Below are positions 1 to 49,415 of a DNA stretch of 64,000 bases, in pieces. The DNA is from Amoebophrya sp. A120 (taxonomy: Eukaryota; Protista; Dinoflagellata). The DNA lies in contig CAJINV010000005.1 in NCBI GenBank assembly GCA_905178155.1, positions 8,959,222 through 9,023,221 of the forward strand. Direction: 5' to 3'. The stretch's first letter is position 1. The number at the start of each line of letters is the position of its first letter. Both the position numbers and the translations under genes were made by a program. The notes beneath the pieces are model-generated. The model searched no databases. It was not told the DNA's origin and was given only the letters and a program-made list of their open reading frames with translations.

Positions 1-435
1 TTCGCGCCTCGGCCTTCCTTGCCCCGGCGCAGCGTTCGCGTTTTCTGCTTGGGTGGCCCCCCGGATCGGTTTGCGCCCGCGCGCCGGGCGCCTGCGTTTC
101 GGCAACTCGTGGCGCCCTCCCCCGCGCGGCGCGCCCGCGCCTGCTACCAGCGGGGCCCCCGGGCCGCGTTTTCTTTTGGGCCCGAGGCCCGTGCCGCTTG
201 CCAAAGATTCACGACGCCCGGTAGCGCGCGCGTTGCCGTTCCGCGCCTGCCCTGGCACTGCCGTTCCCGCGCTTCTGAGTGTGTTCCGCGCCTGCCCAGA
301 TGTTGCGCCGACGAGCCTCGCGCCCCGCTTTTGTTTGCTGGCCCCGAGCGAGGTATGTGCTTCTGTTTGTCACAAGTGATTGCGATTCATCCCGTTGTAG
401 ACGCTCGCCGGTCAGTTTCAGAATAGCCAACCGAT

Positions 436-2665
436 ATGCCTCGAACCAACGCAGTCCGCACCGTGCGGAAGGAGCCGGCCGCGGCAGTTCCGCCCCTTTT
501 GCCCGCGGCCGTGCGGAAGGAGCCGGCCAAAGGTGTAATCCCTTTGCCCGCGAAAGGGCAGCCAGCGAAGGCCCGGCAGGTTTCGTACCTGCAAAACCTG
601 CAACACCAGCAGGCTTCGGAAGGCATCTCGACAGTAGTTTTCTGCTTCTGTTGTGATGAAGTCGACGTGTTCAACTTCGACGGTTTCAACCTGTCCAGCT
701 GTGACACCATGTACCAGCTGACGCATGGCGATAAAAAATACGCGTGCGGACCCCTGGCGCCGCGACAGGCTTGCGTGATCAGGTGCAAGCATCTCCACAC
801 GCAAAAACACATCTGCGGGCATTACTGCTGGCTCGGTGGTGTGCCAATTGGGCCACATGGCGGGGCGCGGCGAGTTGGCGCAACCCCGGAGGAGGCCGCG
901 GCCTGCAACGACGCAGTGTCTGCCGATATCCGCATGGCCCTGCGTATCCGACCCGGCGCGCCGCTGTTGTTACCGAAGGAACGCGAACACTACTGGGCTG
1001 GCAGCTGGCAGAAGGGCTTTTGGGTGGAGGTAACAAGTGCAAAAGTGTCCGGGTCTGGAGGGTTCTGAGATTTGTCCCGAAGTTTTTGCATGGGCTGCGA
1101 TGCCTGTCATGCATGCCGTAGCATGATGGGGCGACTGAGGACCTCGATGCCTATTCCGCATGACAAATGCCCTCTACGCAGCCGCAGCCGTTGCACTCTT
1201 CCAGACCCAGACACTTTCGCACTTGATAGGACGAAACTTCTAACAACATCTTCAGAGCACCGGTTCCGCAGTGGCTCCAGGCGACGGCGCGAGAAAAGGA
1301 GCAGAAAAAAGAGGACAAGCACTACGCGGAGCACGAGAAGTGGTGCATGAAAAACCTCCCGCGGCTGGACTTCCACAACACCAAAAAACACGGGTACACA
1401 ACGTGGCCGACTAACGCCATCAACGGCCTACCAAATGCAAAAGCGTCGAGGTCTGGAATTCTGCCAGGTGTGTCATGCATGTTGTGCATGACTCGAGTAC
1501 TCACGTTGCCAGGTTTTTCCTGCATGTTTTGCATGGCTCAGCTGCGGCCGCGTGGTCGCAGCAAACTTTTTTTCTCACGACCACGAGGAAGATCTTTCTC
1601 GAAGAAGAAGAAGTTCAAAAAAAAGATCGCTTTCTTCTTAGACGAAGGCGATCTTTTTTTTTTTGAAGAAGAAGATCAAAAGAGATCGTCGTCTTCTAAG
1701 AGGAAGACGATCCTTTTTTTTGAAGAAGACGCAGAAGATCTTTCTTTTGAAGAGGAAGAGTCGTCTTCTTCAAAAAAAAAGATCTTCCTCAAGAAGTGAT
1801 CTTCTTCAAAAGGATGAAGAAGAAGATCTTCTTCATTCTTCGTGAAGAAGATCGTCCTCTTCTTGAAGAAAAAAAGATCCCTGTCTTCTAAGACGAAGAC
1901 GATCTTTTTTTTTTTGAAGAAGACGAGGAAGATCTTTTTTTTGAACTTCTTCTTCAAAAAAAAGATCTCCTTCAAGAAGTGATCTTCTTCAAAAAGATGA
2001 AGAGTTCTTCATTCTTCGCGAAGAAGATCTTCTTCCTCTTCAAGAAAAAAAAGATCGCTTTCTTCCAAGAGGAAGACGATCTTTTTTTTGAAGAAGACGG
2101 AGAAGATCTTTCTCGTGAAAAAAAGATGAAGAAGAAGATCTTCTTCGTCGTGAAGAAGATTTCTTTCCTCTTCCTCAAAGAGATCTTCTTTTTGAAGGAG
2201 AAGATCTGCGTCTTCGTGAAGAAGATCTTCTTCTTCGTGAAGAGTGTCTTCTTTTTGGAGAAGATCTTCTTCCGCTCGTGAAAGTGCATGGCGCGCTTGC
2301 TCTCCTGCGCAGGAGAGCAAGCGCGCCATGCGCTTCGTGGTCTGCACGCAAAGCCGCAGCTTTGCGGCTTTTTGCTTCTTGTTGCTGATTTTCGTAGCGC
2401 CCACGGCTAGCGACATGATTTCCAATCTTCCAGACCGCGACGCTTTTGCATTTCATACAGCCGGGAAGTGTTCGACTTCCACAAACCGGACTGGCGCGAA
2501 AAACCGTCGAACTTGCGGCGCGATGAGTACTCAGCCGTGCCGAGGCACTGGCCACGGCCGGAGAACTCCCCGCACTGGCGGCCAGAATACGAACACTGGC
2601 ACGCTGAGGAGTTGGCCAGGGAGCAGAAGCGGGCAAAAAAGTTCCTGGAGGAGGAACACTGCTAA
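436..2665 (+). CDS. Hypothetical Cys/His/Trp-rich protein, 3 exons, ~330 aa
   Basis: Removing introners 1031-1228 and 1029-bp 1429-2457, each plus one 5-bp TSD copy, joins ORF 436.., the middle exon (DETSNNIFRAP...NAING) and ORF 2468..2665 in frame (993 nt). Confidence 0.65.
1031..1228. mobile_element. Introner, family A
   Basis: TIR TAACAAGTGCAAAAGTGTCCGGGTCTGGA / TCCAGACCCAGACACTTTCGCACTTGATA; TSD GGAGG/GGACG. A GT-AG reading 1030-1229 keeps the same frame. Confidence 0.85.
1429..2457. mobile_element. Introner, family A, expanded by an internal low-complexity tract
   Basis: TIR TACCAAATGCAAAAGCGTCGAGGTCTGGAA / TTCCAGACCGCGACGCTTTTGCATTTCATA; TSD CGGCC/CAGCC. Confidence 0.8.
1565..2283. 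repeat. Strand-symmetric GAAGA/TCTTC (AGATCT-rich) low-complexity tract
   Basis: Alternating GAAGAAGA, GATCTT, A-tracts and T-tracts; internal ~180-bp duplication (near 1790 and 1970). Confidence 0.9.
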
Positions 2666-4113
2666 GGAGTGTTTTGGGGAAGTTTTTTTTTGTAACAAGA
2701 TTGGCTTTGCTACAGGACTAGCAACAAGATTGCGCCAAAGTTGCGCTTTTTTGTAACGGGGTCGGCTTTTCTGAAAGACTTGCGACAAGACCTGCAACGA
2801 GATTGGATTTTTTTGTAAAAGACTGCCGCTGGATGTGTTTGTATGGAGTTGGTTGCGCGCCAAAGAAAGCAAGAAAACCTGCCCGGCCGGTGGCTTAGAC
2901 GGTGCCGCCGCGATCTGTTTCGCCGGCGGGCGACGGGCCTCGGTCCTGGTGTTCTTTTGTTTCGGCTGTGTTTCGTCAGAGAGTGTAAATCTCGGTCGGT
3001 CGGGTACACGTAGAATTTCGGTCGGGAGCTCTGGCATTAATTTCCGTCGTATGTAGATAGGCTCTATCGTTTTCAGCGGGTAGCTCTTCTCCTAAGAATT
3101 TCCACACCGCTGCAAGCCTATTCGGAGAGGGAAAACAAAGGAGAGCAGCGCGACAGTATTAACGGCAATCCCGCGTGGAGTGGCAGCGTAGATGTGGTCT
3201 GTAACTCGAGGGAAGGGTGGGAAGCGAGGGAGGGCAGTTGGAGGGTGATCGTTCACGCGCATAGATAGACCGTCCGTGGTAGTCGTCTTGCGGGTTTTGT
3301 CGGACCAGTTGCGATCTACATTAAGATGTATCCGCTTATCGCCCTCGCTCATTTGGCTCTTTGCGGGTTGTGTGGTATTTTCGTCGTTCTCGGCCTTTTG
3401 CGGTGCGGCCTGCGATTGTGCACGCGGCGGAGCGCCGGAAGCGCGCGGGCACTGCCAATGGGCCGGCCCGCTCCAGCGTCCCCTTTGCGGCAAAACCGAG
3501 CGCCGTTGCGCCTGCGGAGAGGGCCGCCACCGCCTCCAGCGCCGCCCCTTTTCGGTCGAGGAATTCTCGACGCCCCCGACGACCTTGGCTTCGAGTTTGA
3601 CGCCTTTCACGCTTTGGCGCGACCGCGAACGCCACCACGCTCGGCGACGCCGTCCCCCTCGTCGCGCGCGTCTTCCCCCCTTTCGCGCGGCTCCAGCACA
3701 GTCGACCCCAGCCCGGCTGTTTGACTTGGACGGGCGGGCCCGTCCTCATGTGTACTCGGACTGTTGTAGACAGACACCGGTCGACGCGCGGCGAGTGAAG
3801 TAGCCTCTGGAGTATTCATTGTTCAGGCATGTGAGAGGAGTTGCATTGGCCGAGCACCTAGCAGCCCCACGCGCGTAAGCAAGAGAGGAGGGCGAAGAGA
3901 GCGGCGCAGCTTTGGTCAGGCACCACTACGGGCGAACGTGCTAGCCTGGCCCTCGTATTTTCGTCGCGTGAAGGTTGGCGTTGGTGTTTTCTTCGCAGTT
4001 TCCCGCGTTCTTTATCGTAGTGTCGCGCTTCTTCTAGAAGTTTCCCGCCTTGTTTATCGTAGTAGAACAACCAGCGAGATTTGTACAAGTAAGAAAAGAC
4101 ACCGGAAGGACAG

Positions 4114-5643
4114 ATGTCACGGGCCCGGCGGGACATGCTTATCGCCCGCGAGGCGGCCCGGCGCCGCCGGAGGGAGGCGATGCTGCGGCGCATCGCCTAC
4201 AATTTTAGTGCGGGGGCTTGCGCAGAGGTCCTACTGGGATGCGTGTTGACCTGTCTCTCGTACCCGGCCGCGCTATTCTCGCCCAGTGCCTCGGCAGTGC
4301 TGCACGCGGCGGCCCTGATTCTTTTCGTCCTGGAAGGCCTGGCGCCGGTGGTGGTAAATCTTTCGCGGGCTCCAGCGCCCTCGCAGCTCCAGGGCTGCCC
4401 GAGCGGCTTCGTGATTCCGAACTGGGCGACGCAAAGCGGTTGTCTTTGGGAGGCGCTTCGCGACGCGCTTGACGCGACACCACGTTCACGAGTTGAGTCA
4501 GGGCAAGCACGGCGGGACCTACAGCGGAAGTGCTCGCCGTCCTCGTTGCGACACCGGGCCGGCGGAGTTCGCGGGGCTATGTCGACGACGCCGATGCTCT
4601 ACCGGGCAGCTGAGGTATGTTTGCGGGGGTTTCTTGCTTCGTGTGTTTTGGTGCTTAGGGTAGGAGTAGGCTCCTCGGTGGTTTCCTCCCCGGCCCTGCC
4701 CGGCGGCTTGTGTATTGTCTGGCGCATATTTATTCCCTCTGACGACACAAACAGGACCTCGGCCGTGTCATCTTGGTGCACGATGTGGCCCGCGGGGTGG
4801 TTTGGTCAGTCGAGCCAACGCCGGCGGCAGCAGGCCGGGCGGGTGTTGGTCGTGTTGTGCCGCCTCTCTTTCTTCGGTTGGACCGCCAGCACTACATGGC
4901 CTACGCTTCCGCGGGGGCTTTTGCAGTATCCGCGGGCAGGGCTCCTCGCTCTCCCGCGCTCGACGTCGAATTGTGTGGCGGCGCCGCTGCGGAGCTGTCC
5001 TGCGTGGCGGCTGCGGTCGCGGAGGTCAACCGGGTCGGCTTGCAGGGCGGAGACTGCGTCGCGTCGTCGCAGCCTGCTACGAAAGGGCTCCCGGATGGAG
5101 CCAACTTCCGGCCCCCTATTCCAGTTGCAGAGATACACAGCCCACTCAAGTGGCTTTGTGTTGCCATCGTACGGAACGGAAACTGTTTCTGGATCGGGTT
5201 GGTGTATCAACGGGAAGGATCCCCCCCGCCGTATATCAAGAAGGCATAGATAGCCGAGCCAATTTGTGATGGTGATTGGTGGCCACAAATCGCGTCCGTC
5301 TTGCAATAGTGCAAAGCCTGAGGGCGCGCCGCATTTCGCCGGTGGTTTGTGATGCATGTTGGTGGGTGGCATCTGGTTGCAGTTCGCAGGCGGATTTGCG
5401 TACGCAAGTCCCGCGCTACAGATTCCCCTTTTGATATAGGGCCGGGGACCTTTTCCTGGCGATATGCTCACGCACTTCCTGACCCGAGCGGGATCGGCGG
5501 CAGAACGCGAAAAGTGGCTCGCTGTCTTCTGGCCGGTCGACTACGCCGTCGCTTCGGAGGCAAAGGGCTACCGCGATTGGTTGCAGTTGGGCCCCCAGGC
5601 GGCCGATTGCGAGGCTCTCTATGGCTCCGCCGTCAAGGTATAG
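4114..5643 (+). CDS. Putative OTU-like cysteine protease, ~374 aa
   Basis: GT-AG intron 4615-4754 plus introner 5205-5464 give a 1125-nt ORF. Motifs SGCLWEAL ... YRAAEDLGRVILVHD ... LRLDRQHY resemble OTU Cys and His boxes; a second Cys box is RNGNCFWIGL. Confidence 0.5.
5205..5464. mobile_element. Introner, family C, diverged
   Basis: TATCAACGGGAAGGATCCCCCCCGCCGTATATC / GATATAGGGCCGGGGACCTTTTCCTGGCGATA; C-family internal AATTTGTGATGGTGATTGGTGGCCACAAATC; TSD TGGTG/TGCTC. Confidence 0.7.
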
Positions 5644-5664
5644 CTTGCTGCTGATCATGTGGCC

Positions 5665-5976
5665 AGATGATATATCTGAATGGCCGCGAAGTGATAGATG
5701 TCCGAAGCTTCTCAAGAGTGAGGATCTGGAATGCCCGCTGTTCCCGTTAAGGTGATAGATCTGAATGGCCGTCAAATGATGCGCGTGCGAAGCTTTTCAA
5801 CAGGATCCGAAATAGCCTCTGTTCCTGATGAGATGACTGATAGACCTGAGCGACATCAAGATGATAGAAGTCCGAAGTTTCTCAACAGGGTCCGCGATGC
5901 CATTTGTTCCCATTGAAATGATGCACCTGAATGGCCATAATGTGATACGTGTCCGAAGCTTCTCAACAGGGTCCGA
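5665..5976. repeat. Degenerate tandem repeat, ~4 copies of ~85-90 bp
   Basis: Recurring GATGATAGATCTGAATGGCC and GTCCGAAGCTTCTCAACAGGGTCC blocks. Confidence 0.7.
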
Positions 5977-6560
5977 AGAAGTCGCTGGCAGCTTTCCCTC
6001 TGTCTGCGGAGGGACTCAACTGATTGAGAATGCTTCCTGGGACCTCTAGCGCTTCAGCGTGGCGGGTGTGTTCAAAGTCAAACACCTAGAAACAGACCCG
6101 CGCGCGCGCTTCTGTCTTCCTGATGCGCCAACTATACCAGTCCACCCTTTGCGACGCTCGCATGCATCGCGTGGCGGTTTTCCTTTGTTTCTTCCTTCGG
6201 CCGCTTTTTTCTCAACACCGACCAAAAACATTCAAAAAAAGGTTGGGGCGGCCGTTTTGCAAGACCGCGTCGCAGCGAGAATGGGCGTCGCGTTGGAATA
6301 TGGCAAAGCAGGTATGGGGATGAAGACGCCCCCTCTCCAGTTTCAAACGCAACCAAGCCCGCGACGCGCGTAGCGTTTGGAGGTGGGGAGGGGGGTTCTT
6401 GCGTGTGATACCGCTCGGCGCCGCGGAGTGGGGAGCCACGGCGGCGCTTCTCGGGATACGGATCGGCGTCCTTGCGAAATTTCAGCCCGAGGAATTTCAC
6501 GGCCCTGCCTGCTTGTCGGAAACTGCGCCAACGGTCCATCTGTTGTATCACAGCGCGCAC

Positions 6561-9500
6561 ATGGATCTCGCTTTGGAGCGTATTGAGCTGGACTCGCAGG
6601 ACTCGCCGCAGCGGGACGGGCCGCCCGGGCCTTCTTCGCCTCCAAAGCAGCCGCCTCCTTCTTCACCTCCTGCGCCGCTGCTCCGGAGCCGAGACGCCCG
6701 GCGCCAATTGCCTGCAGACGGGGACACGACGCTAATCCTTCCCGACAGCGACGACGATGACCCAATGTTCCCCGGCCCGTCGCGCCGACGCTCCCGTGGA
6801 CGATTTGGGCCCGCCGGCGTTGCAGGCGGAGGCCCGGCCGCTGCCGCGGGCCTCGGGCAGCAATACGCGAGCGGACCGCTTATGTTTGGCGGGCTTGGGG
6901 CGAGCAGTGGATCGCGGCCGGGTGTGGTGCCGCGGCGCGCAGACCTTCCAGGCGAGGGGCACCGGAATAGTGGGCGGCCAGATCTGCCGCCATCGCAGCA
7001 CCAAACTGGCGCGGGCGTGTTCGGGTTGCCAGGCTCTTCCAGCACAACCGCGGCAGGCGGGACGCAGAATAATAACGGAGCGCCCGCAGCTCTCGGGCCG
7101 GCACAGCAGCACGTCGCAGTCGCCCACGCGCCGGGCTTTGCCTTTGTGGATGCCGGCGAGCGGCTATTATTTTCGCCGCCCCCGCGTGCCGCGGCGGACG
7201 CAGCCGCTCCTGCGGACGGGATGCAGTGGAATGACGTTGACGCCTTCGACCCTGAAGTTGATCCTGAGGGCCCACCCGGTGCGGCCGGAGGGGGCCCGGG
7301 CTTGTTGGACCCGTTCACTTTGCCGAAAGGGGCAACAAGGCTCGCCGATTTCTTGGACCCGAACCCTGCCCGGGTGCCGCTCGACCGGCAGCCCGGGTCC
7401 GAAGATTTGCAGCGCCGCCAAATCCTTGAGGAGATTGACCGACGCGCCGGACTGTTGCGCCGGGTTTGTGATCAGCTGGGATTTTTCAACACCATCGACC
7501 AAAGGTTCGCGCGGGCCGCCGCTGTCACGCAGCTCATGGACGAAAAGCTCCGCTGTATTCCATACACGAAATCCGAGCTAGCGAAGGTAGTCGCCTTCAG
7601 TGGCCTGGAGCTTACCTGGCGGGCGTTGGAGCATACCATTCTCTCCCGCCCCAGCAGCGGGCTCGATTGTTGGCAGCCCGAAGTCGAAGGGAACAGCAAG
7701 AAAAAAGTGTGTCAGCATTCCTGCTTCGAGGCTGTGGCAAAGAGCTGCCACACGGTCGCAGCTTACTGCCTTTACTTGCTCGGCGCGGGCGGCGGCGAGA
7801 GAAGTGTCGAGGAGGTGATCGCGCGGCTCATTCTGGAGGCCAATGGCGACTACCCGGCCGCGGTCATACTGGCGCACAAAAAAGTCGTGGAGAGATCCCA
7901 AGCAAAGCGGGAGCGCTACGGGGTGAGCCAGACGCGGGAGTTCACCGAAAAAGCGAGCAAAGGCTGGAATGACCTGGCTGAGGTTACAAAGTACTGGCAG
8001 GACGGGTTCGACAGGCTTGAGGTTGGAGATGTGACCCGGTACGCCGCAGTGCGGGAGAGCAGTGCCGAGGTCGCTTTTTTGGACGGCCGGCTGGTCCCCG
8101 GCGAGAGTGGGGGCTTCTGCTGGGTTCCGGCAAGTTCCGAGGGCATTGACAAGGACTACCGCAACTGCCATACTTACGGCGGTGTGGCGACCCGCCTAGC
8201 TCCAGGCGAGCCGCCGGACGCTGATGCTGCTGCGGCTTGGGCGAAGTTTCTGCGCGAGTGTTTCGGCCCGTCGGACGGAGGGGTCTTGGCAGTGTTCTTC
8301 TTATTGGTCGGGTTGTTGCTCCAAGGGCAGGGTCCCGGCAGATGGGTGATGTGCATGAACGACCACGGATTTGCGAAGAGCACTTGGAATGATTTCATCT
8401 GCTATGCCGTTTCCAATGGCAAGCAGGAAGACACCTTCCTTCAGCGGGAATGCCTTGAAGGCCCGGAGCAATTCGAGGCAGGGGCCTGGCATGTGGTTGA
8501 TTCCAAAGTAACAAGAACGCCCGAAGTCCGTGGCAAGCTAGACAACGGGCTGATGAAGAATCTCCCCGACAAGCATTACGCAGCCTCTACGCGGCGGAAG
8601 TATTGCAACTCCCTCATGGTCTTTTTTGGTTTGTTTCTCCACCTCCTCGAGTTCAATCCGAAGAACGGCGAGGCTTTGCAATTGAAAGACCTCCAGGACG
8701 ACATTGATGCAGTCCTGTCGCGGATCCTGGTCCTCCAGAAGATCCTGGGGCGGTTCGTCGATGCAGACCTGTGGGCTCGGCTTGGTGGTGACCCTACCCT
8801 TTTCCCGGACAATCTGCCGGATGGGTTCACCGCCAAGAAGGAGGGCACCACCTTCACCCTGCGCACCCCGGAGATCGTTCGCTGCTTCTACTTGTCGGTG
8901 GTTTCGCAACCCCTTCGTGGACCGCCTGCGCGCCGATGGCGAGACCTTGGCCGGCATCTTCGTCGACTTGCGGAAGCTTGACAGCAAGGTGCTGGCGTAC
9001 ACAGGGCACAGGACGACGACGGCGAGAGACAGTGAAGACTTCGTCTATGACGTCCTTTTTAAGAAGTCGATCCCCCGCCCCGACGCAGTCCCCGGCCGCC
9101 AAGCAGCCGCGGCACCACCGCCCACGCGGAAGATTAACTGGGGCGACAACCGTATTGGGGCGGCCTTGCGTGGCAACAAGAAGGCGAAAAGGGAGGAGCT
9201 CGAAAATTTCGCGCGGAACAACCCGAAGGAGTGGCACCTGCGCAGGAATTGGCATTCCGTTCGCGGGAAGTATGAAGAAGTTGGCGGGACGTTGTGGCCG
9301 TTGTTTTTCGAGCCCGACCGTATTCCGGAGCTGGCTTTTGGTCGCATGGGGCAGATGGTCGGCCACCCCTTCCAAGTGAACACGCAGTCGCTGAGTTTCC
9401 ACGCGCAGCTTCTCCGAAAACGAGCGCACCAAAGTGGCGACGCCAAAAAAGTAGCGCAGGCAGCTGTCTGCGAGGATTTTCTGGACCGCGCAAAAAATGA

Positions 9501-12500
9501 GGAGGACGGCTGGGTCGTGACGCCATTGAAGTTCCCGAAGTCCCTGGAGGGACTCGGCGCGAAGGAGTGCGGCTCCCGGAGGTATGAGGTCGCCGCCGGG
9601 CCGCAGCGACTCCCGAGGGGAGCGCGGGCGGCTGCGGTGGCAATGTACAAAGGCCCCGAGGGCGCTTTTCCACTTTACGAGGAGTGGGACATTGAGAATT
9701 GCGACCCGACGGTGACGGTTTTGCTGATCGACCGCTTATTTCCCGCGCCCGCCTCCCCGCCGCCCCTCGTGTGTTTTCGCGAGCTCGTGCGGGACCGGGT
9801 TGCGGTTCGCCGAAATTTAGAAGCAGCGGGGGAGCCGGATGCGAAGACGGCTCTTTTGCGGCTCCTATGCGGCGGGGAGCCGCGTGCTGGCGCGTCGACC
9901 TGGGAAAAGGATTTTGCAGCTGAGTGCCGACTGGTTCGCGAGATTCTTTGCCAGGCCCGGCCGGCTCTGTTCGCGCACCTGCAAGAGGCGCGCAAGGTGG
10001 AAGAAAGCAGGCGGGACGACGTTGGCGCGCCCGCTTTCCTGCCGAGGCAGCCGAACCGCTACCCAGACCCCGCGGCATCTTGCCAGCACCACGCGACGCA
10101 GGACATCGTTAACCGGATAATGTCCGCGCATGTCCGCGCGGTTGTGGACGTTTGCGGAAGGCAGGCAGTCGGGGCGGAGATATTTGACGCCTTTCTCGCC
10201 CGTATCGACTTGCCGGGCGGAGGTGTCGCGGACGCCATTTCCAACATTTCCCGGGAAACGGGGTACCCGGTTCGTCTGGTGCAGAAGGCGGTCCGGGGTC
10301 CGCGTTGGTGGTACCTCATTCCGCAAAGTGAGGCGCCCCGCTTGGACCCGCCGGGCGGGCGGCAGCCCTTCGAGGCCTGCGGACCGGCAATGCTGCGGGG
10401 CCTTGGCGAGGCGGTTCCGCAGCATTGTGGAAGTTTGTCCGCGGAGGACATTGCTGGAATCACGGGGAAGGCGCTCGCTCTTTGTCCGGCTGGCGAGGCC
10501 GCCGACCTCCTCGCCTTAGAGGGCAAGCCGGAGGCGCCATGGGTAAGAGCTTACGTGCTGCAGCGCGTTGACCCGGAGTCTATTGGTGTCCCGGCGCCGC
10601 CACCGATCGCGGAAGGGACGGACGAGTTCGGCGGCGAGGCGCGCTGGCATTGGTGGGCGCTCGAGAGCGGCGCCGGGTATTTCTCCCCGGGCGCGGTGAG
10701 GCTCGTTGATGTTGACGGAGTTCGTGTGCTTCCGCCAGCGAGCGTCGCGGAGGTGCTTGCGTTTTTGGATGCTTGCCCGGTGTGTTTCATCTATGTGGAG
10801 ACCGCTCCGGGAGAAGCCGGCGACGCGGTTGCCGCTCGGCTGCTCGGTATGGCGGACAACCTGGCGCACTTTCAGCTGAAAGGGGACGCGCGAAAGGACC
10901 CGGATGATTTTCCCCAGACGGCCGCGAAGCGGACGAAGACGTACAAATTTAAGCCCTTGCAGTGGAAACATGTAAAGACGCGCCGGTGGTTCCGGGTTGC
11001 AACGTGTTCCCGGGACCGAGAGTGCCACCGTTGCCGGATGTGTGGGGTTTCCCCGGTTCCACACAATTCCACCACCCACAAGCACCTCCTGTGCAGCTGG
11101 CGCTTTCATGGGGATACCCCGCCGGACATGGTCGAGGAGATTCCGAAGTACGAAGCAGAATTCGGAAAACCAGACGAATCATACTACATGTCCCTGCAGC
11201 AACTTGCGCCGAGCTTGCGCCAGAAGGTGCACAGATACACCCTATCGGGCGGAAACATGGTGGACGAAAAAACGCTCCAGGACCGAAAGCCCGGCACCAA
11301 GAACGACCCGTCCGCGCGAATTGACCAGATTCTCGGCATGGATGGCGCAGCCCTCCGCGAGAACTTCTTCCCCGGGGTATTCGAGTGCGCCACCTGCGGG
11401 GCGGGCTGCGAATTGGGCGAAACCCGCTGGGGTATGCCGGAGTGGGTCTGCAAGTGTGGCGCTGCCACCCCGTGCGATTTTTTTCGTGAAGCAGGCCTGG
11501 TGACTCGGTCAACCACCCCAATCGCCACCGCGGTCCAAGTTGTGCGCGGTTTCGTTTTGGGGCGAACGTCCTCGCAGACCGCCCTCGATTTGGCCATCCA
11601 CTCTAGTACGGTCGGGCTGATGTACGACAGCATCGTCGCCGCAGCCGCCTCGCTGTACCACATGCAGAGCGAACTGGTAACCTACCCCAAAGTCTCCTGT
11701 GTCGAGGCAGATGAGGCGTGCTTCGGCAGGACGACGGTCGACCACATCGAGGCCCAGTGGGCCCCGAAATAAAAAATCTATGGCGTTGCTGAAAAATTTT
11801 TTTTTCGAAAGAAAAAAAAACTCCGGCCCCGGCCACTACATGACGAAACGAAAACAAACAGGAGCCCCAAGGGGCGCACCACATGCCGGACTAATTGCAA
11901 GGCAACGCCGGACACTGGGAGGCAAAGAGAAACAACACAGCCGGGGCACCGCCCTCGACACCTGGCCGAACAACACCCGCCAAGCAAGAGACATCAGGCG
12001 CAGTCCAGTCCTATGGCCCGAGGCACTCCCGAGGAAAGCAAAGAAAGGGAGGCAGCGAGACCCAACATCATGAGGGCACACAAAAAAGACTTCCGCCTGT
12101 CCCATGCACAACACCACGACCGCCGGCTGACTTGGGATCAACTAATGGGCGAAAAAAAGTCAGCGAATGGGCAGAAAAAAGTCAGTTTTTGAGCAGTTTA
12201 TGGGAACAAAAAGTTCAAAAAAAGTCGCCGCTTTTGCATGTATAGGGAAAATCCCTCAGGTTTTTTGCCCACGCCCATTTTTCTGACTTTTTTCTGACTT
12301 TTTAATGATTTTTTTCTGACTTTTTTCTGACTTTTTTTCGCCTTTTTGCTGATTTTTTTGCCGCGCATGTCGCGCCACGAGTTGCCATGGGCCCGCGTTG
12401 GGCTCGGCAACCTGCGCTGCAAAACGACCAACCGGAGAGGCTTTCACCGACCAACCGGGAGGCCCTCTCTTGGTGAAGACAATCGCCAAGACACCTCCTC

Positions 12501-13779
12501 CCGGTCTGCAACATTTCGCCCCATGTGGTGGGCGCCATCGACACACACCACACGGCGCAACACGCAAGGCCTCTGCCCCGAAAACGAAGAGCCGGACGCC
12601 AACCGGCACAGAAAGGCGCCGGAACATGAATGGGGCCAAAGCTTCGCCACAAACCCCCCGGCGGCAAAATTTTAAAAAAATGAAAGCCAAGCAGTTCGGT
12701 TTTTCAATGAACGCCATAGATTTTTTATTTTTTCGGCTACTGGGACTCGATCTGGTCGACGACGGCCCTCCGCGCGCGGCAGAAGGTGCACCAGACGAGG
12801 ATCTTCCAGTGTGTTCTGCAGAGGGGCTGCCCAAAATCGTTAAAGCTTTTCGATTTGGGTGTCGCGGAAAGTCGCGAATCGTCTAGGTTTCCCATTTTGA
12901 AACAGAACGTGTGGAGGTTCGTCTATCGCAAGTTCATACTCCCTGCCTGGGAGGGGGTTCTGCCGGAAAATAGTGGCGAGTGCCTGATGTGGTTGTCCGT
13001 TGACTCCGCCAGCTGCTACAAATTAAAGCGGTCGGAGTACGTACTTCTGTCCGTCGTGCATTCCCAGCGGGAGTTCTGGGCGAAGCTTAAGCACCCGGAG
13101 CTTGCCGACGCGCCGGAGCTCGGCAACAACTGCGCGGAGAACGTCTGGCGGCACTTGCGTAAGTTGCTGAAGGAACGTATGGAAGTGTCAGAGTCGAAAT
13201 CGGCAAAATCGAAATAATTTGCGATGCATAAAGCCGGCACCACTTGGGGCCTCGGTGTGTTTCGAAGTGGCGCATGACAAATTTCGGGAGCACGAAGAGC
13301 AAGCCGGTCATGCTGTTTGGGCGAAGAAGACTGCTCCTGCCGTGCTGCTCCGGCAGGGCATCGCCTTCCTCTAAACAGGCTTGGAATCGGTCTCATTTGC
13401 CTGCTCCCCAGCACAGGCCTCACTTGCCCTACCTTTTCTGCATTGCAAGTTTCTCGATTTTGTCGATTTCGATCCTGGCGCCCCCATAGAACGGTGTGCG
13501 ACAATGCGGAAGGACCACCTGATGCAGAAGCCGAATTGGGTCTACGCTATGGCGTATCTGTTTGTTTCTTCCCTCCCCATCGACGGCCGAGTGTCCGAGA
13601 TCATGCAGATGCTCTTATCGCCGCGAACCCTCTACAGCGTTGGCCCGAGCGTGCCCCCGGAGGGACTGTCACAGGAAGAGCAGGACGCCCTCTCCGAGGA
13701 AGAGTGGTCCGACGAAGAAGACGAGCAGCCGGAGTCCGATCTCAAGGAGCTCTTCGACCTGTCGCCGTCCGAGGGATAG
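6561..13779 (+). CDS. Multidomain protein: D5-like SF3 helicase + TVpol (A-family-like primase-polymerase) + Zn ribbon/HTH + IS1595/ISXO2/Merlin-type DDE transposase, ~1957 aa reconstructed
   Basis: Joins ORFs 6399..8981, 8704..11772, 12786..13217 and 13381..13779 via a +1 shift near 8890, removal of 1028 nt (11738-12765) and removal of 316 nt (introner 13178-13488 + TSD); total 5874 nt. Helicase: WAKFLRECF, HGFAKST, TPEV, LMKNL...RRKY, EFN, SRILV. Polymerase: GSRRY...QRLPR, WDIENCDP, AKTALLRLLCGG, IFDA. Transposase: CATC...WVCKC, HTH, VEADE, SVDSASCY, VVHS, NNCAENVW. Confidence 0.8.
11738..12765. mobile_element. 1028-bp foldback/MITE-like insertion splitting the transposase domain
   Basis: ~60-bp imperfect terminal inverted repeats (GTCGACCACATCGAG...AAATAAAAAATCTATGGCGTT); 8-nt direct repeat GACGACGG at 11730-11737 and 12758-12765; internal inverted GAAAAAAAGTCAG / CTGACTTTTTTCT tracts. 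Confidence 0.85.
13178..13488. mobile_element. Introner, family E, in the transposase C-terminus
   Basis: TIR TATGGAAGTGTCAGAGTCGAAATCGGCAAAATCG; perfect TSD GAACG. Confidence 0.9.
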
Positions 13780-14048
13780 CGTTGCTTTCGGAAACTATAT
13801 CAGTTAAGACTCGAAATATCAGCAACACCAATAAACTCAGCAATTTACGCAAGCGCCGCCAGTACGTTCTCCGTGCAGTTGTTGCCGGGTTCGGGCGTGT
13901 CGGCAGGCTCCGGGCGCTTAAGCTTCGCCCCGGTCGTGTATATCAGAAATCAGGAATATGCGTAGCATTGTGCAACAGAAGAAAATCGAGCAGGCATATA
14001 ATACGAGAAGCGTACTAGATTCCTAGAAATAACAGAAACGACAGTCGA

Positions 14049-14206
14049 AGCGTTGAAATTTCGGAAAAGATAAAGCCTACGCTGGCCGTTCGCAGATAGA
14101 TTTTTCATTTTTTCACAAGCTGGCTCGCAGCGTTGAAATTCCGGAAAAGATAAAGCCTACGCTGGCCGTTCGCAGATAGATTTTGTATTTTTTCACAGGC
14201 TGACTC
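14049..14206. repeat. Direct repeat, 2 x 80 bp
   Basis: AGCGTTGAAATT(T/C)CGGAAAAGATAAAGCCTACGCTGGCCGTTCGCAGATAG... at 14049 and 14129. Confidence 0.9.
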
Positions 14207-14350
14207 TGTACAAAAGTGGAGCTGGAGACATTCGAAAAAAATGCCCAAGGCTGCTGAAAAACATAAAAGCGAAGGAAGACCGGAGGCCGGCAGACTCCTG
14301 CGCATGTGTGTCCCCCTTCTCCTTTCTTCTCTCGCCGTGTATTATCTCGC

Positions 14351-14997
14351 GAGGGACAGAGGACCGAGGACCGGAGACCAGCAGGCTCCCTGTTATGTGC
14401 CCGACCTTTCAAGCTACCGCCTCACCTCGCCAACTACTACCTTGTGAGCGACTGAGGACCGAGGACCGGAGACCAAGAAACCCCCTTTCATGTGTCTCAG
14501 CTTTCTAATTTCTTACCCCTTCAAGTATTACCTTTGGAGCGACTGAGGACCGAGGACCGGAGACCAAGAAACTCCCCTTCGTGTGTCTCAGCCTTCTACT
14601 TTCTTATCCCTTCAAGTATTACCCTTTGAGCGACTGAGGACCGAGGACCGGAGACCAAGAGACTCCCTTTCGTGTGTCTCAGCCTTCTACTTTCTTATCC
14701 CTTCAAGTATTACCCTTGGAGCGACTGAGGACCGAGGACCGGAGACCAAGAAACTCCCTTTCATGTGTCTCAGCTTTCTAATTTCTTACCCCTTCAAGTG
14801 GGACCCTTTGGGCGACTGAGGACCGAGGACCGGAGACCAAGAAACTCCCTTTCATGTGTCTCAGCTTTCTAATTTCTTATCCCTTCAAGTATTACCTTTT
14901 GAGCGACTGAGGACCGAGGACCGGAGACCAAGAAACTCCCTCTCATGTGTCTCAGCCTTCTACTTTCTTATCCCTTCACGAGACCAAGAAGCCCCCT
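14351..14997. repeat. Tandem repeat, ~7 copies of a 91-bp unit
   Basis: GAGCGACTGAGGACCGAGGACCGGAGACCAAG... at 14446, 14537, 14628, 14719, 14810 and 14901, with a degenerate copy at 14351. Confidence 0.95.
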
Positions 14998-15524
14998 CTT
15001 AGGAGTTGTAAGGAAGGTTCTTCCTTTTGCGGAAGTTGAGCGGTTGAGTGTTGTTTGTTGTTGTTGCAGTTCTTGCTCAAGTAGAGAAAAAACGCCAATC
15101 ACGATGGAGCTGCTGTTATTCCGTACCATGCCAAGAACTACAACTACCCGGCCAGGTCTAGCACAAGAACTCGTGACAATTTTTTTTTTCAAAACTTCAA
15201 TCCTTTTTCATACTGCAGCCAAGAAGGGAAGCACTCGTGCCAGAGGGCTGTTAAACCAAATTTTGTCTTTTAGAGCTGAAGTTTTTTTTGTTCACAGTTC
15301 ATCATTCATTTATCATCATCTTTGGGACGAGAAACGTATTTTATTTTGTTCCTTGTGACGTCTGCCTACATCATTCGTCGTGTGTCGAAATTCGAATCTT
15401 CTCCCTGCGATTACCGCACGAAAAGGATAGATGGATTGACATTCAGCTACTTAAATTTCGGTCCATGAGGAGTCAGTACGAAGTTATTGAACCTATATGG
15501 TACTAACCTCGCCAACCTTCATTC

Positions 15525-23226: not shown

Positions 23227-26200
23227 TCACTGAGGCATTAGATCAGGTGGCCGCTCGCCAAGGCCGGCTGCAGTAGGCCACAAACCGGCGGTGGACTGGG
23301 CATCACCAGTGGGCCGGCCAGACTCCCCACCGACTGCCACGCAAACGTTAGCAAACAGCTCCCCGAGCTTGGTGATCCGGATTTCCTCCTCCGGTTCCCC
23401 GAGCTTCATCGCCTCCTTTTGCTGCCCACTGTAGGGCAAAGGCCCCACGCTGCTGTAGCTCGGGCGCGACGCCAGAGCCTCGGAAGGCTTGGGGCAGGTA
23501 GGAAGCGCCGTTACATCAGTTTTACCGGGGGCGCGGAGCCGCCAATCCCAGAAGAGCAGCGGCGAAAAAACGGTCATCATGATTTCCTTCACTTGTTCGC
23601 CGCCCATTTTTTCCCCCTTGCGATGCCTGCCCAACTTGGAAACCCGACTCGCGAAAACGTCTCCAGAGACCATCGCGCCGCGTTCGTTGGCGAATTTGTT
23701 GTCGTTCTCCGAAATACCTCCGGATTTTCGAGGGAAAACATTTCGGTGAGGTAATGACATTTCAGCATTTCGCTTGCGGATGATTTCCGGGACGTCGAAG
23801 AGAACGGGCTCACGTTTGCGTTTCTTTCCTACCCTCTCCCGAGCATCGCCAAGGGTCTTCCAAATAAGCGGAGCTCCAATCATCTCCAGGCGTTGAGGAC
23901 AGCGGGGCTCCGGCGCCTCGGAGCCTAGAAAAAGTTTTTCTTCTAGAAAAAGTTTTTCTTCATAGCAGGCCTGAAACCACAAAGACCCAGAGTCGGTAGA
24001 AAAAACTTCAAAGATGGTAAAACTGAAGCTGAACAAGTCCATGAGCGGGTGGCGAGGCAGTTCGGAGGGGCGCAGGATTAGCTTTCCAGTGTCCATATAG
24101 GCCAGACTTCCTGTTGTCAACACTTTTTCGCGCAGCATCGGCGTGGTCATGAGCGGGTCATGTGGCAGTTCGGAGGCGAACAGGAACAGCTTTCCAGTGT
24201 CCATGTAGGCGGGACTTCCTGTTGCCGCCACGTTTTCGCGCAGCATCGGCGTGGTCGGCGTGGAAAACGGGCCAAAAAAGAACATCTCGCTGAACCCAAA
24301 GTCAGAAACCAAGGGCTGCGAAGCATACCCAGGGGCTGCGAACCGTCCCGGCAAGAGCAGCCCCAGGCTCCCCGGCCTCAAATTGCCATGCTCGATTCCC
24401 AAGGACTCGAAGCGCAAGAGGCACTGTCGCAGGTGTTTCACGAAAGCAGCTGGATCGAAGTCTGCGTTTTTGTGAATGAGCTCCTCGATGGAAGGGCGGT
24501 CTGAAAACGGCTGCAGGTATGCGGTAGAAAAGTCACCCCACCCCACCTTCGTCGAACAAATCTGCATGCTCAGATTGTGTCTCGCGTGCAGTCCTCCCAT
24601 GAGAAAACATTTAACTCTAAATGATGGACATCAAAGCCAATTTTTGGTAATGAAATTATTGCCCTCAGGGACGGTGGCCACGCCTGTGTTGTCACCTGTG
24701 TAGCACAGCCAAAGTCCCCATTCCCATTTTTACAAATCTTTGATGGGGAGGTGGGTGCGCTTTTACATAGGATATCACACTTTCCATCATCATGCTCACC
24801 ACCCCTTCCTCGTTCGCGAAGAAAAACTCCAGGTGCGGCACGCAGCGACTGATTGCCGCGCTAGCACCAGCTGCATCGGCCACTGGTGCAGCAGCGCTCC
24901 CTTCCCAAATGAAAACATCGCGCATGCCTTCTGTTTCAAAAAGCGTCAGCAAAGTGTGCACGAAGATTGCGGAGGCTGCATTTTCGACCTCTTGCTCGTT
25001 GCGCACAGGCTGGCTCTTCAGGGCGTAATGCCCGCCATCTTTCGAGTAGAAAGACACAGACACCCCAGCAGATCCCCCCGGGCTGGGGGAATCGGAGGAG
25101 CGGGCGTAGTCCTCGTTGAACTGCTGCAGCGTGGTCACCGGCTGCGCAGCGAGCTTCTCTCCCAGTTTTTCCAGGAAAGCGACCTTGCTCGCAACATCCT
25201 CTCCTTCTTCACCACGACCCGTCGCGCCGGCCTCGGCGCCGGCCGAGGTCCACCACGGAAACAGCTTCTCCCGTTCGACTTCGTTTTTAAGCATCTCGCT
25301 CAACTTCTTGAACTGCGCAGCAAGCTTGTCGCTCAGAAGCGTTCCCACAGAAGTCTCCACTGCCGCGCAAACTTCAGAAAACAGCTCCACAAGCTGTTTT
25401 TTCCGAAAGTTTTTGTGGTGGTCCGAGAGCTTCATCACCTCCACTTGCGGCTGCGTGTTGTAGGGCAAAGGCTGCACGCTGCTGTAGCTCGCAAGTGACT
25501 CCAGAGGCGCGAAAGCGTTGGGGCAGGCAGGAAGTTCCTTTTTGTCCGTTTCACCAGGGGCGCGGAGCCGCCAATCCCAGAAGAGCAGCGGAGAAAAAAC
25601 GGTCATCATGATTTCCTTCACTTGTTTTCTGTCCATTTTTGCCCCCGTGCCGTGCTTGCCCAATTTGGAAACCCGACTCGCGAAAACGTCTCCTGTGACC
25701 ATGGCACCCAGCTTGTTGGCGAATTCGTTGTCGTTCTGAGAAATCATATCGCTCCGGGACCAGAAATTTTGGCGTTGGATGATTTCCGGAACGAAGAAGA
25801 GTTGGGGCAAAAAAGGACCTTGCGTTCCCTTTTTAGCACGGACAATGGTGTCCCAAAGCTTCTGCTGACCTGCACAGTCGTGCCGCCGGTCCGGATTGCC
25901 GCCAACAGCTGCTCCACCATAGCAGCTCACAAAGAGTGCAGACTGAGAGTTGATAGAAAAAACTTCAAAGATGGTGAAGCTGAAGCTGAACAAGTCCATA
26001 AGCGGGTGGTGCGGCAGGGAGGATGGATGCAGGAACTGCTTTCCAGGGTCCACGTACCGCGAAGTTCCTGCACTCAGCACTTCCTTGCGCAAAAACGGCT
26101 TGATCGTCAGCGACGGCGTGTCAAAAAAGAAGATCTCGCTGCACCCAAAGTCAAAAACTAAGGGCTGCGAAGCGCCCACAAGGACTGGGCCTTGTCCCGG

Positions 26201-29200
26201 ATACCAGGTCTGCAATTTGAACGGCAGCCCCAGGCCCCCCGGCTTCAAATTGCCATGCTCGATTCCCAAGGACTCGAAGCGCAAGAGGCACTGTCGCAGG
26301 TGTTTCACGAAAGCAGCTGGATCGAAGTATGCGTTTTTGTGAATGAGCTCCTCGATGGAAGGGCGGTCTGAAAACGGCTGCAGGTATGCGGTAGAAAAGT
26401 CACCCCACTCCACCTTCGTCGAACAAATCTGCATGCCCAGATTGTGTCTCGCGGGCAGTCCTCCCATGAGAAAGCATTTAATTCTATATGATGGACATCA
26501 AAGCCAATTTTTGGTAAATGAAATTATTGCCCTCAGGGACGGTGGCCACGCTTGTGTTGTCAGCTGTGCAGCACAGCCAAAGTCTCCATTCCCATTTTTA
26601 CAAATCTTTAATGCGGAGGTGGGAACGCTTTTACATAGGATATCACGTCTTCCATCATCATGAACGCATACCCCCTTTCCAAGAGGAAGAACTTCAGGTG
26701 CGGGACGCAACGATTGATTGCCGCGCTTTGTCCCTGTCCCGCAACGGCGACAGCACCAGCTGTCCCGGCCACTGGTGCACGAGCGCTCCCTTCCCAAGTA
26801 AAAACGTCGCGCATGCCTTCTGTTTCAAAAAGCGTCAGCAGAGTGTGCACGAAAATTTCGGAGGCAACATTTTCGATCTCTTGCTCGTTGCGCACAAGCT
26901 GCTTCTTCTGGGCGTACTGTTCGCCATTTTTCGAGTAGAAAAACAACGTAGCGTGGGCGTCCAGGAAGACGTATTGTTCGCCAAACTGCTCAAGCGTCAT
27001 GAGCGGTGGCGCAGCGAGCTTCTCTCCCAGTTTTTTCAGGAACGCGAGCTTGCTCGCAACATCCTCCTCGCGTTTGCGATTCTCATCCTCTTCTTCCCCA
27101 CGACCCGTCGCGCCGGCCTCGGCGCCGGCCGAGGTCCACCACGGAAACAGCTTCTTCCGTTCGACTTCGTTTTCAAACATCTTGCTCAACTTCTTGAACT
27201 GCGCAGCAAGCTTGTCGTTCAGAAGCGTTTCCACAGAAGTTTCCACTGCCGCGCAAACTTCAGAGAACAGCTCCAGGAGATTTTCTTCCCGAAAGCTTTG
27301 CTCGTCTTTCGAGAGCGTCATCACCTCCTTTTGCTCCTCGCTGTAGGGCAAAGGCTGCACGCTGCTGTAGCTCGGCTTTGACTTGAGAGCCTCGGAAGCG
27401 TTGGGGCAGGCAGGAAGTTCCTTTTTGTCCGTTTCACCAGGGGCACGAAAACGCCAATCCGAAAAGAGCAGCGGAGAAAAAACGGTCATCATGATTTCCT
27501 TCACTTGGTTTCCGTCCATTTTTCTCCGCCCGTACTTGCCCAATTTGGAAACCCGACTCGCGAAAACGTCTCCTGTGACCATGGCACCGCGCTCGTTGGC
27601 GAATTTGTTCTTGTTGTCCCGCGACTCAGAATAATCTCCCAGAAACCCCGACCACAAATCTTGATTGCGGATGATTTCCGGGACGCGGAAGAGTTGAGGC
27701 GTCAGACGATCGTGCGTTCTCTTTCCGGCACGCTGAATGGTCTTCAAAAGCTGACGTGGACAGCCCGCCGGAGTGTTAGAAACAACTGCTCCATAGCAGT
27801 TCACAAAGCCCGCAGACCGAAGGGTGGTGGAAAAAACTGCAAAGGTGGCGAAGCTAAAGCTGAACAAGTCCATAAGCGGGTGGTGCGGCAGTTTGTTGGT
27901 GGACAGGATCATCTTTCTGAGGTCCATGTAGTGAGCAGCTCCTGCTCCCGACACTTCCTTGCGCAAGAACGGCTTGATCGTCAGCGACGGCGTGTCAAAA
28001 AAGAAGATCTCGCTGCACCCAAAGTCAAAAACCAAGGGCTGCGATGAAGCACCCAGAAAGACTGGGCTGCGATGTCCCGGATACAATTTGAATGGCAGCC
28101 CCATGTTCGCCGGCGTCAAATCGCCATGCTGGATTCCCAAGGACTCGAAGCGCAAGAGGCACTGTCGCAGGTGTTTCACGAACACAGCTGGGTCGAAATC
28201 ATCGTTGTTGGAAATGAGATTCGACATCAAGCCCTGGTCCTGTAAAAAAAACGGCTGCACGTATGCGGAGGCAAAGTCACCCCACCCCACCTTTGTCGGG
28301 CAAATCTGCATGCCCAGGATGTGTCTCGCGGACGGTCCCATGAGAAGCATTTATATAAATTCTAATGATGGACATCGAAGCCAGTCGCAGTCCCCATTCC
28401 CATTTTTACAAATCTATAAAGGGGGAGGTGGGTGCGCTTTTATATACGATATCACGATCTCCATCATCATGTACGCAAACCCCCCCTCCACGAAGAAAAA
28501 CTTCAGATGCGGCACGCAATGATAGACTGCCGCGCTTTGTCCTTGTCCCGCAACGGCAACAGCACCCGCTGCATCGGCCACTGGTGCAGCAGGGGTCCCT
28601 TCCCATGTGAAAACATCGCGCATTTTTGCTGTTTCAAAAAGCGTCAGCAAAGTGTGCACGAAAATTTCGGAGGCTGCATTTTCGATCTGCTTCTCGTTGC
28701 GGACAGGCTGGCGCTTCAGGGCGTACTGTTCGCCATTTTTCGAGTAGAAAAACACCTCCCCAATATCCCCTCTTATGGAAGTACCAGAATAGGTGTATTG
28801 TTCGTTGAACTGCTCAAGCGTCATGACCGGTGGCGCAGCGAGCTTCTCTCCCAGTTTTTTCAGGAACGCGAGCTTGCTCGCAACATCCTCCCCGCGTTTG
28901 CCATTCTCATCCTCTTCTTCACCACGACCCGTCGCGCCGGCCTCGGCGCCGGCCGAGGTCCACCACGGAAACAGCTTCTTCCGTTCGACTTCGTTTTCAA
29001 ACATCTTGCTCAACTTCTTGAACTGCGCAGCAAGCGTGTCGCTCAGAAGCGTTCTTGAACGCTTTCCCACGGAGCTTGTCTCCGCGACAGAGCGGTCGAC
29101 TGCCGCACAAACTTCAGCAAACAGCTCCAGGAGCTTTTTTTCCCGAAAGCTTTTTTCGTCTTCCGAGAGCTCCATCGCCTCCTTTTGCTCCTCGCTGTAG

Positions 29201-41336: not shown

Positions 41337-42131
41337 GATAGCTGCACAACTCCAGAAACAAATTGTACCGAAAAATCTACTACGAGTGGTCACCGATTCT
41401 TCCGAGGCGAAGAAAAATGAAAACTTAAACTACGTAGTGACTTCAATACATTGCTGCTCGGTGTATTCGATTCATATCAATACCGAAAATTGCAATCACT
41501 TACTTACAGTAGGTTCCCCACGACCGGATAGTACAGAAGTTGGTGTTGGTGTTGGAAAGAAAGAACCTGGCAAACCAGACACAAGAACTAGCTACTGAAA
41601 TCGGTAAACGAGAAAAAGAACAAGCCGGGCCCGAAGAGACGAGTCGGAGCTTTCTTCACCCAGCAAATTGGAAAACATGTTTCCCTGCAGCTGCTGCACC
41701 CGTCTTCTTCAATATTTCTGTGGGCAAGCGCAAGGTATTTATTTTGTCGCAAGAAAGATTCATTGTATAAATTCAAAGATGTCGACTAGATGCGGACACG
41801 ACCCTTCAGCGTCGCCTTTTCTACTTGTTAAAACAAGCCGCGTACAACTTCTGAAGTAGCTGACCATGTATTTATTTTCATCGTGTTACTTTCCTCCACT
41901 TCTGACCACCGAAAAAAATCATCTGGTGTTCTTCTCGTGGTGAACTGAACCTCGATGCAGCGGCTCCAGAACAAGAAGATCATTATTTCTTGGAAATAAA
42001 CAATGGAAAAATACTAAATGCGCGTGATAAATCTTCTCCATTTTTTTCTTCTGGAAAATTCGTACTGCTCGTTGTCCTTGACTTCGCCGCAACTACATGC
42101 TGGCTCAGAACAACATCAAAAACCTCCCGCC

Positions 42132-43874: not shown

Positions 43875-43875
43875 N

Positions 43876-48620: not shown

Positions 48621-49415
48621 GATAGCTGCACAACTCCAGAAACAAATTGTACCGAAAAATCTACTACGAGTGGTCACCGATTCTTCCGAGGCGAAGAAAA
48701 ATGAAAACTTAAACTACGTAGTGACTTCAATACATTGCTGCTCGGTGTATTCGATTCATATCAATACCGAAAATTGCAATCACTTACTTACAGTAGGTTC
48801 CCCACGACCGGATAGTACAGAAGTTGGTGTTGGTGTTGGAAAGAAAGAACCTGGCAAACCAGACACAAGAACTAGCTACTGAAATCGGTAAACGAGAAAA
48901 AGAACAAGCCGGGCCCGAAGAGACGAGTCGGAGCTTTCTTCACCCAGCAAATTGGAAAACATGTTTCCCTGCAGCTGCTGCACCCGTCTTCTTCAATATT
49001 TCTGTGGGCAAGCGCAAGGTATTTATTTTGTCGCAAGAAAGATTCATTGTATAAATTCAAAGATGTCGACTAGATGCGGACACGACCCTTCAGCGTCGCC
49101 TTTTCTACTTGTTAAAACAAGCCGCGTACAACTTCTGAAGTAGCTGACCATGTATTTATTTTCATCGTGTTACTTTCCTCCACTTCTGACCACCGAAAAA
49201 AATCATCTGGTGTTCTTCTCGTGGTGAACTGAACCTCGATGCAGCGGCTCCAGAACAAGAAGATCATTATTTCTTGGAAATAAACAATGGAAAAATACTA
49301 AATGCGCGTGATAAATCTTCTCCATTTTTTTCTTCTGGAAAATTCGTACTGCTCGTTGTCCTTGACTTCGCCGCAACTACATGCTGGCTCAGAACAACAT
49401 CAAAAACCTCCCGCC

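Follow-up and report, generated by a model that had tools for sequence, protein, structure and literature searches.

A helicase-, TV-Pol- and IS1595 transposase-like fusion in Amoebophrya sp. A120, likely part of a low-copy replicative DNA transposon

Could one eukaryotic protein both copy a transposon and integrate it? This question is raised by a 64,000-nt stretch of Amoebophrya sp. A120 (assembly GCA_905178155.1, contig CAJINV010000005.1, positions 8,959,222 to 9,023,221), hereafter the window, in which four open reading frames (ORFs) occupy positions 6561-13779. An earlier note, made from the letters alone, had joined these ORFs and read them as a helicase, a TV-Pol polymerase and a Merlin/IS1595 transposase in a candidate self-synthesizing transposon. 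We found that the helicase-polymerase-transposase fusion is real and lies in one long protein. It is likely that the locus holds a damaged gene copy encoding a protein of about 1950 amino acids, and that it is part of a putatively mobile, low-copy replicative DNA transposon that would copy its own DNA. This view draws on the frame itself, which a distant homolog conserves, on the homology of its domains, and on a synonymous excess between variants.

Four ORFs form one interrupted gene

The four ORFs lie where the earlier note placed them, and the 5874-nt frame it proposed is open after excising 11738-12765, the introner at 13178-13493, and one base near 8900. The ORF2-ORF4 portion of this frame has zero internal stops, and the frame becomes 5877 nt if the GT-AG splice at 13177-13489 is used instead of introner excision. 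All five catalytic codons quoted in the note encode Asp or Glu at the coordinates given, and the quoted helicase motifs fall at 8238-8730. Within the window itself, an uninterrupted ORF (8686-11772) spans the polymerase-to-transposase junction.

An HMMER search with ORF2 over 1.84 billion representative proteins returned three matches (P0001, P0002, and P0003). P0001 is a 1661-amino-acid gene model of Amoebophrya sp. AT5.2 (g6326.t1) that is about 28% identical to the fusion. It matches 7758-8891, 9571-10317, 10645-11760, 12783-13091, and 13504-13722 in the same order and with 26-37% identity by segment. Comparing P0001 with pieces of the window by tblastn gave E values of 3e-19, 4e-11, 2e-33, 2e-13, and 0.008, with all four ORFs collinear. 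P0003 carries the helicase and polymerase in a single frame across the window's shift site, and P0002 contains the polymerase only. Word-index homolog searches found no further family members, nor did pattern scans of viral contigs, phages, plasmids, and phage LMM01. A metagenome pattern scan yielded 37 motif loci with no polymerase match and helicase scores at motif level only, and a scan of prokaryote genomes gave no family member, the one match among 401 at E 0.007 being short and cysteine-rich.

Contigs from two public sequencing runs of one sample (X1 and X2) were searched for variants of the locus. A second variant lacks the 1028-bp insert and has an empty-site junction that is in frame. 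It differs from the window at 29 of 342 nt over 11212-11553, and its contigs have loose ends at 8454-8458 and 8546 that are typical of introners of its own. Both variants span 2400-14300, with a summed X1 depth of ~30-60 outside introners. RNA runs in which the organism itself may be absent placed two reads (X4), one read (X5), and no reads (X6 and X7) on the locus. Half of the coding substitutions listed between the variants (26 of 52, being 12 from 40 of 353 rows plus 40 of 89) are synonymous, as compared to 24% expected (p 6e-5). The ORF1 indels among those listed are two, of 3 nt and 12 nt. The features of the gene are as follows:

6561-8000, + strand: N-terminal low-complexity region and helical segment (in ORF1; the P0001 alignment begins at 7758)
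8001-8897, + strand: D5_N-like domain and SF3 helicase-like domain (HHalign against a pooled D5 profile; family alignment)
8888-8901, + strand: +1 frame shift between ORF1 and ORF2 (codon bias; comparison with the P0001 and P0003 sequences; seen in an X1 contig)
9400-10300, + strand: TV-Pol (family A-related) polymerase domain (HHalign, hidden Markov model (HMM), and Foldseek and VIA on the P0003 model)
9571, 9688, 9844, and 10186, + strand: TV-Pol residues, namely the hairpin Arg in GSRR, Asp, the fingers Lys, and Asp
10324-11349, + strand: conserved domain with a CxxC...HxH motif (11032-11085), 29% identical to P0001 over 242 amino acids (E 4e-22)
11350-11736, + strand: IS1595-type zinc ribbon, helix-turn-helix (HTH), and first catalytic Asp (11710) (HHalign to IS1595; Atlas on P0001)
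11737-12764: nested 1024-bp element with 60-nt terminal inverted repeats (TIRs) and a 4-nt direct repeat (TIR element at 11737-12760), absent from the second variant
12766-13176, + strand: transposase core with Asp 13002, His, and Glu 13137
13177-13489, + strand: high-copy introner (TIR element 13178-13488, 5-nt direct repeat, GT-AG ends)
13490-13779, + strand: last exon, with transposase C-terminal helices and an acidic tail

Codon bias changes frame near 8900. Assembly slip was ruled out as the cause of the +1 shift, since an X1 contig covers 8517-9421 with 0 gaps. X2 contigs break at 8881 and restart at 8907, which, from the pattern at other variant sites, we infer to be a variant difference within 8882-8906, over the shift. 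The shift is likely a lesion of the window copy. It may instead be a programmed frameshift or small intron, but two homologs (P0001 and P0003) read through the site.

Taking out the 1028 bp of the nested insert restores the frame and leaves 8 nt of direct repeat behind. The insert appears best read as a 1024-bp TIR element plus a 4-nt direct repeat. A client of the fused transposase with an 8-bp target-site duplication (TSD) is disfavoured, as symmetry of the TIRs requires a repeat of 4 or 6 nt. The introner at 13178-13488 keeps the frame whether spliced or excised, has a summed contig depth in X1 of ~10,000, and has a relative at 52644-52953. Both inserts are probably spliced out. The anatomy of the introners, compared with that described in PMC7789003, and the P0001 homolog both point to an Amoebophrya-like syndinian as the likely host.

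The polymerase resembles TV-Pol

Profile comparisons argue strongly that the polymerase is TV-Pol, as the earlier note had proposed. HHalign of the four-member family gave a probability of 99.2 (E 2.7e-19) over 238 columns. The homology covers the thumb, hairpin, palm, and fingers, and the GSRR Arg, Asp 9688, and Asp 10186 align with conserved TV-Pol columns. Of the fingers RxxxK motif, the Lys is conserved and the Arg is found in P0001 and P0003 and is absent from many references. Atlas placed ORF2 residues 200-540 with unnamed viral clusters (0.96) and with DNA_pol_A (0.83).

The TV-Pol references came from a motif scan of viral contigs that gave 121 loci and 66 distinct full-length ORFs. 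Each of the 10 reference ORFs checked has D5-type Pfam matches in its C-terminal half. The resulting HMM scored P0001 at 1.6e-24, P0002 at 1e-14, P0003 at 6e-4, and the window's ORF2 at 0.0075; with the scanned motif removed, the values were 7e-17 for P0001, 2.5e-5 for P0002, and 0.98 for ORF2. A model of P0003 built with reference rows had a predicted local distance difference test score (pLDDT) of mostly 60-90 over the polymerase; a single-sequence fold of the polymerase gave 41. It matched the Zamilon virophage replication protein with a probability of 1.0 and a root-mean-square deviation of 4.4 over 223 columns, and because of this match we take the reference set to be TV-Pol. Its match to Pol I enzymes was weak (best VIA Z 5.1, 210 residues). 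In a quick tree, for which compositional bias was flagged, the four family polymerases formed one long branch apart from the 66 viral ones, with a Shimodaira-Hasegawa-like approximate likelihood ratio (SH-aLRT) support of 99. The reversed domain order claimed earlier also stood, as the polymerase motif lies within the first 237 residues in all 72 full-length viral TV-Pol ORFs retrieved.

The transposase is of IS1595 type

The identification as an IS1595 transposase also appears good at the profile level. HHalign gave a probability of 85.6 (E 5.6e-6) over 261 columns, from the zinc ribbon to the C-terminal helices, which bears out the earlier call. The references were 58 bacterial IS1595 proteins (all six checked carry PF12762 and PF12760), and four control profiles, a set that did not include IS630 and IS1, had E values over 0.06. 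Atlas placed P0001 residues 1255-1615 with IS1595/ISXO2 clusters (0.95). The two Asp and the Glu of the DDE triad are intact in the window. Plain hmmsearch with the IS1595 references gave no significant match to the family transposase, and the Pfam IS1595 transposase model gave no direct match to the window ORFs or homologs, which also had no family match in Pfam, PHROG, NCBIfam, or PDB sequences.

A zinc ribbon (CxxC...CxC at 11386-11457) is present in the window and in P0001, and is absent from Merlins as described in the available text of PMC8101967. The proposed Merlin membership was therefore dropped: because of the N-terminal zinc ribbon, we label the transposase IS1595-type and not canonical Merlin. 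Upstream, the conserved domain at 10324-11349 had no PHROG match and is likely metal-binding, judging from its motif. The N-terminal region (6561-8000) had no Pfam or PHROG match.

The helicase is the weakest of the three domain calls

We hold the D5/SF3 helicase call with moderate confidence. What survives of the earlier claim is moderate profile homology with the motifs in order, the Walker A being non-canonical. HHalign against a pooled D5 profile (40 bacterial and 36 viral) gave a probability of 83.9 (E 7.8e-6), as compared to E 0.16 or more for controls. One locus from an unpublished genome was kept out of the D5 profile, and none of the claims depends on it. A bacterial-only profile of 40 D5 proteins gave E 0.004 and a score of 28, whereas 20 column shuffles scored no higher than 18, and six viral-only helicase profiles gave E 0.007-0.43, collinear over up to 249 columns. 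In the profile comparison, D5_N, Walker A, Walker B, motif C, and the Arg finger occur in order. Relative to GxxxxGK[ST], the first Gly of Walker A is replaced in three of three members and the second is Ala in two of three; K[ST] is retained.

Weighing what the locus is

By profile homology, the locus encodes its own polymerase and its own integration enzyme, the combination that marks a self-synthesizing transposon. In such an element, the zinc ribbon and HTH would bind the element ends, and the DDE core would cut the ends and join them to the target. The tethered helicase would unwind DNA while TV-Pol primed or extended from a free 3'-OH, the template being either an intermediate of strand transfer or an excised copy. 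Every catalytic step of this scheme is extrapolated from homology. The nearest experiment concerns the related complex CcPol-MP, which is a proven primase according to the available text of PMC10061031. Whether the locus represents a new superfamily, the syndinian self-synthesizing transposons, in which one polypeptide replicates and integrates, and the first fusion of a family A-type polymerase with a DDE transposase, we regard as an even call.

Several observations weigh against a self-copying transposon. Neither the window nor P0002 has the fingers Arg. The fold match of the P0003 model is not independent, given that TV-Pol rows were in the model alignment. The profile and structure check suggested earlier gave profile support for the polymerase and transposase and a fold match for the polymerase model, but Foldseek of the P0003 model against the PDB gave no match under E 0.001. 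For the helicase, seven of eight template profiles scored weakly, and the region was unfolded in the model (pLDDT mostly < 50, from an alignment of three sequences). With a degenerate Walker A in each of the three family members, helicase activity can only be inferred. At the column of the catalytic Glu, P0001 carries Gly, and a Glu stands three residues before it. Eukaryotic small DNA viruses pair PolA with tyrosine recombinases and not DDE enzymes, in the portion of a 2026 preprint consulted. The contigs hold just two variants, which may be alleles. Finally, no pair of TIR and TSD brackets the gene (1-6560 versus 13780-40000). The Merlin-type ends expected earlier, with a TSD of 8-9 bp, were likewise not seen, there being no TIR/TSD pair with a GG start; the left end could be beyond the window, and Merlin TIRs are sometimes highly imperfect.

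Three other explanations have to be set beside the replicative transposon. The gene could serve replication and integration in a larger endogenous virus-like element, of Polinton-like virus or virophage type, with capsid genes situated to the left of the window or diverged beyond recognition. Pairs of TV-Pol and SF3 are typical of these viruses in the sources consulted, a GC-rich block with two neighbouring candidate genes (U1 and U2) reaches the left window edge, both variants cover 2400-14300, and tandem arrays lie on the right. We nonetheless consider this unlikely, as the U1/U2 exons are without Pfam, PHROG, or viral-contig match, the family polymerases form a long branch separate from the 66 viral ones, and the available DNA around the 121 viral TV-Pol loci has no IS1595 gene. 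Domestication of such an element into an immobile host gene, inherited vertically in syndinian dinoflagellates, seems rather improbable. It would suit the missing ends, the low copy number, purifying selection, the introners tolerated inside the gene, the altered Glu column of P0001, and the Merlin-like genes without TIRs reported in other alveolates. A host gene is harder to square with the frameshift in the window copy, whose DDE is intact, or with variants set apart by several inserts and, locally, by 29 of 342 nt, and the 26-37% identity to the AT5 protein is below the Amoebophrya ortholog mean (48-51%).

The earlier note had named chance nesting, which here would put an IS1595-like transposon next to a relic viral replicase, among what would overturn its reading. 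Four separate ORFs in the window are what nesting predicts, and P0001 is an automated gene model. However, the polymerase-transposase junction lies within the uninterrupted ORF, and P0001 shares the order and the middle domain at about 28% identity. Chance nesting is very unlikely because of the collinear P0001 match, which largely excludes it, and the second variant without the 1028-bp insert.

Relation to known systems

The architecture is real and conserved, appears to be undescribed, and fits the established concept of self-synthesizing transposons. We did not find a helicase-TV-Pol-IS1595 fusion in the literature consulted, which was mostly open-access and did not extend to Repbase. The claim of novelty thus holds for the fusion and its helicase-first order, neither of which appears in that literature, but TV-Pol replicative transposons were already proposed in 2008 (PMC2579912). 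In the available text of that paper, Iyer, Abhiman, and Aravind describe bacterial TV-Pol with a resolvase, integrase, or RNase H-fold transposase (IS630/IS605) as proposed replicative transposons. Those elements use separate adjacent genes, and the only fusions described there join TV-Pol to D5 at its C-terminus or to a globular domain at its N-terminus, whereas the window encodes one eukaryotic chain with the helicase first and IS1595 last.

The TVpol-SF3 replicases of Sputnik (V13) and Zamilon have a polymerase and D5-like helicase homologous to those in the window. Virophage and Polinton-like virus replicases place the polymerase first (72 of 72), the reverse of the window's order, and the partial text of the 2026 preprint pairs them with tyrosine recombinases; no capsid gene was seen in the window. 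The preprint, as far as consulted, also describes PolA N-terminal to helicases and tied to tyrosine recombinases, and suggests that such replicases may move alone. Set against the IS1595 family and eukaryotic Merlin, the transposase has a full-length IS1595 match over the zinc ribbon, HTH, and DDE core. However, the IS1595 family has a stand-alone transposase gene, while that of the window is fused behind 1600 amino acids of replication domains, has a longer spacing between the first two catalytic Asp, and has no GG-TIR or 8-9 bp TSD that we could find.

Polintons/Mavericks, casposons, transpovirons, and pipolins likewise have their own polymerase and their own integration enzyme. Polintons and casposons combine a family B polymerase with an rve integrase or Cas1 (PMC4046053, available text), unlike the family A-related and IS1595-type pair in the window. 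The preprint excerpt gives pPolB and DDE for transpovirons, and pipolins have piPolB; none of the four is reported as a single chain in the parts of the sources consulted. CcPol-MP of SCCmec is a TV-Pol-group enzyme on a mobile element with demonstrated primase activity and an adjacent D5-type helicase, but it differs from the window fusion in having separate genes, a required single-stranded DNA-binding partner, and serine recombinases (PMC10061031, available text).

The self-synthesizing transposons described in the literature consulted carry a family B polymerase and encode integration in a separate gene. An enzyme with helicase, TV-Pol, and IS1595 in one chain would combine modules in a new way. 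If true, it would break the reported pairing of PolA with recombinases and PolB with DDE, and would make the 2008 prediction testable with a single protein. It is also an autonomous-looking DDE gene that escapes Pfam in a lineage reported, in the available text of PMC7789003, as nearly transposase-free despite many TIR introners. No link is shown between the fused enzyme and introners.

Surroundings of the gene

Positions 1-14000 are GC-rich, and differ from downstream genes in both GC and GC at third codon positions (GC3). Two candidate passenger genes lie to the left:

U1, 427-2662, + strand: likely spliced, with the same GC/GC3 as the fusion gene
U2, 4123-6323, + strand: likely spliced, with its end placed from the sequence

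Their GC (0.54-0.67) and GC3 (0.68-0.79) are like those of ORF1-3, as compared to 0.50-0.55 and 0.45-0.67 for eight downstream ORFs. U1 and U2 would accordingly seem to belong to the element, which may be longer than 14 kb with its left end beyond the window. The U2-region protein (4743-5640) has an NGNCFW stretch that we take to recall the OTU protease motif; Pfam gave no match. Within U1, 1424-2458 is likely an introner made larger by short palindromes arrayed in AT-rich sequence (1568-2335). Another likely introner, with 85-bp tandem units, lies at 5638-6141, where the X1/X2 variant skips 470 bp (5661-6132).

To the right, 13837-13930 (- strand) is an inverted copy, 89% identical, of the DNA encoding the catalytic-Glu motif (13078-13170). 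It begins 58 bp past the stop codon and could pair back onto the mRNA, or could be left over from a second copy or from a template switch. An 80-bp duplication and a 91-bp tandem array follow at 14045-15050, which are possible subterminal repeats. Farther away, 31029-32017 is a 989-bp TIR element with a 4-nt direct repeat, in the size class of the nested insert and without sequence match to it. At 23227-30108 (- strand) stand four long ORFs in tandem, diverged members of a single family whose wording is kinase-like; the one tested had no convincing Pfam match. A near-exact tandem duplication of 7284 bp (36508-43791 and 43792-51075) is either a recent event or an assembly artefact. A strict scan of 15577-62864 found 28 TAT...ATA TIR elements, 26 with 5-nt direct repeats, some of which lie in the duplicated segment.

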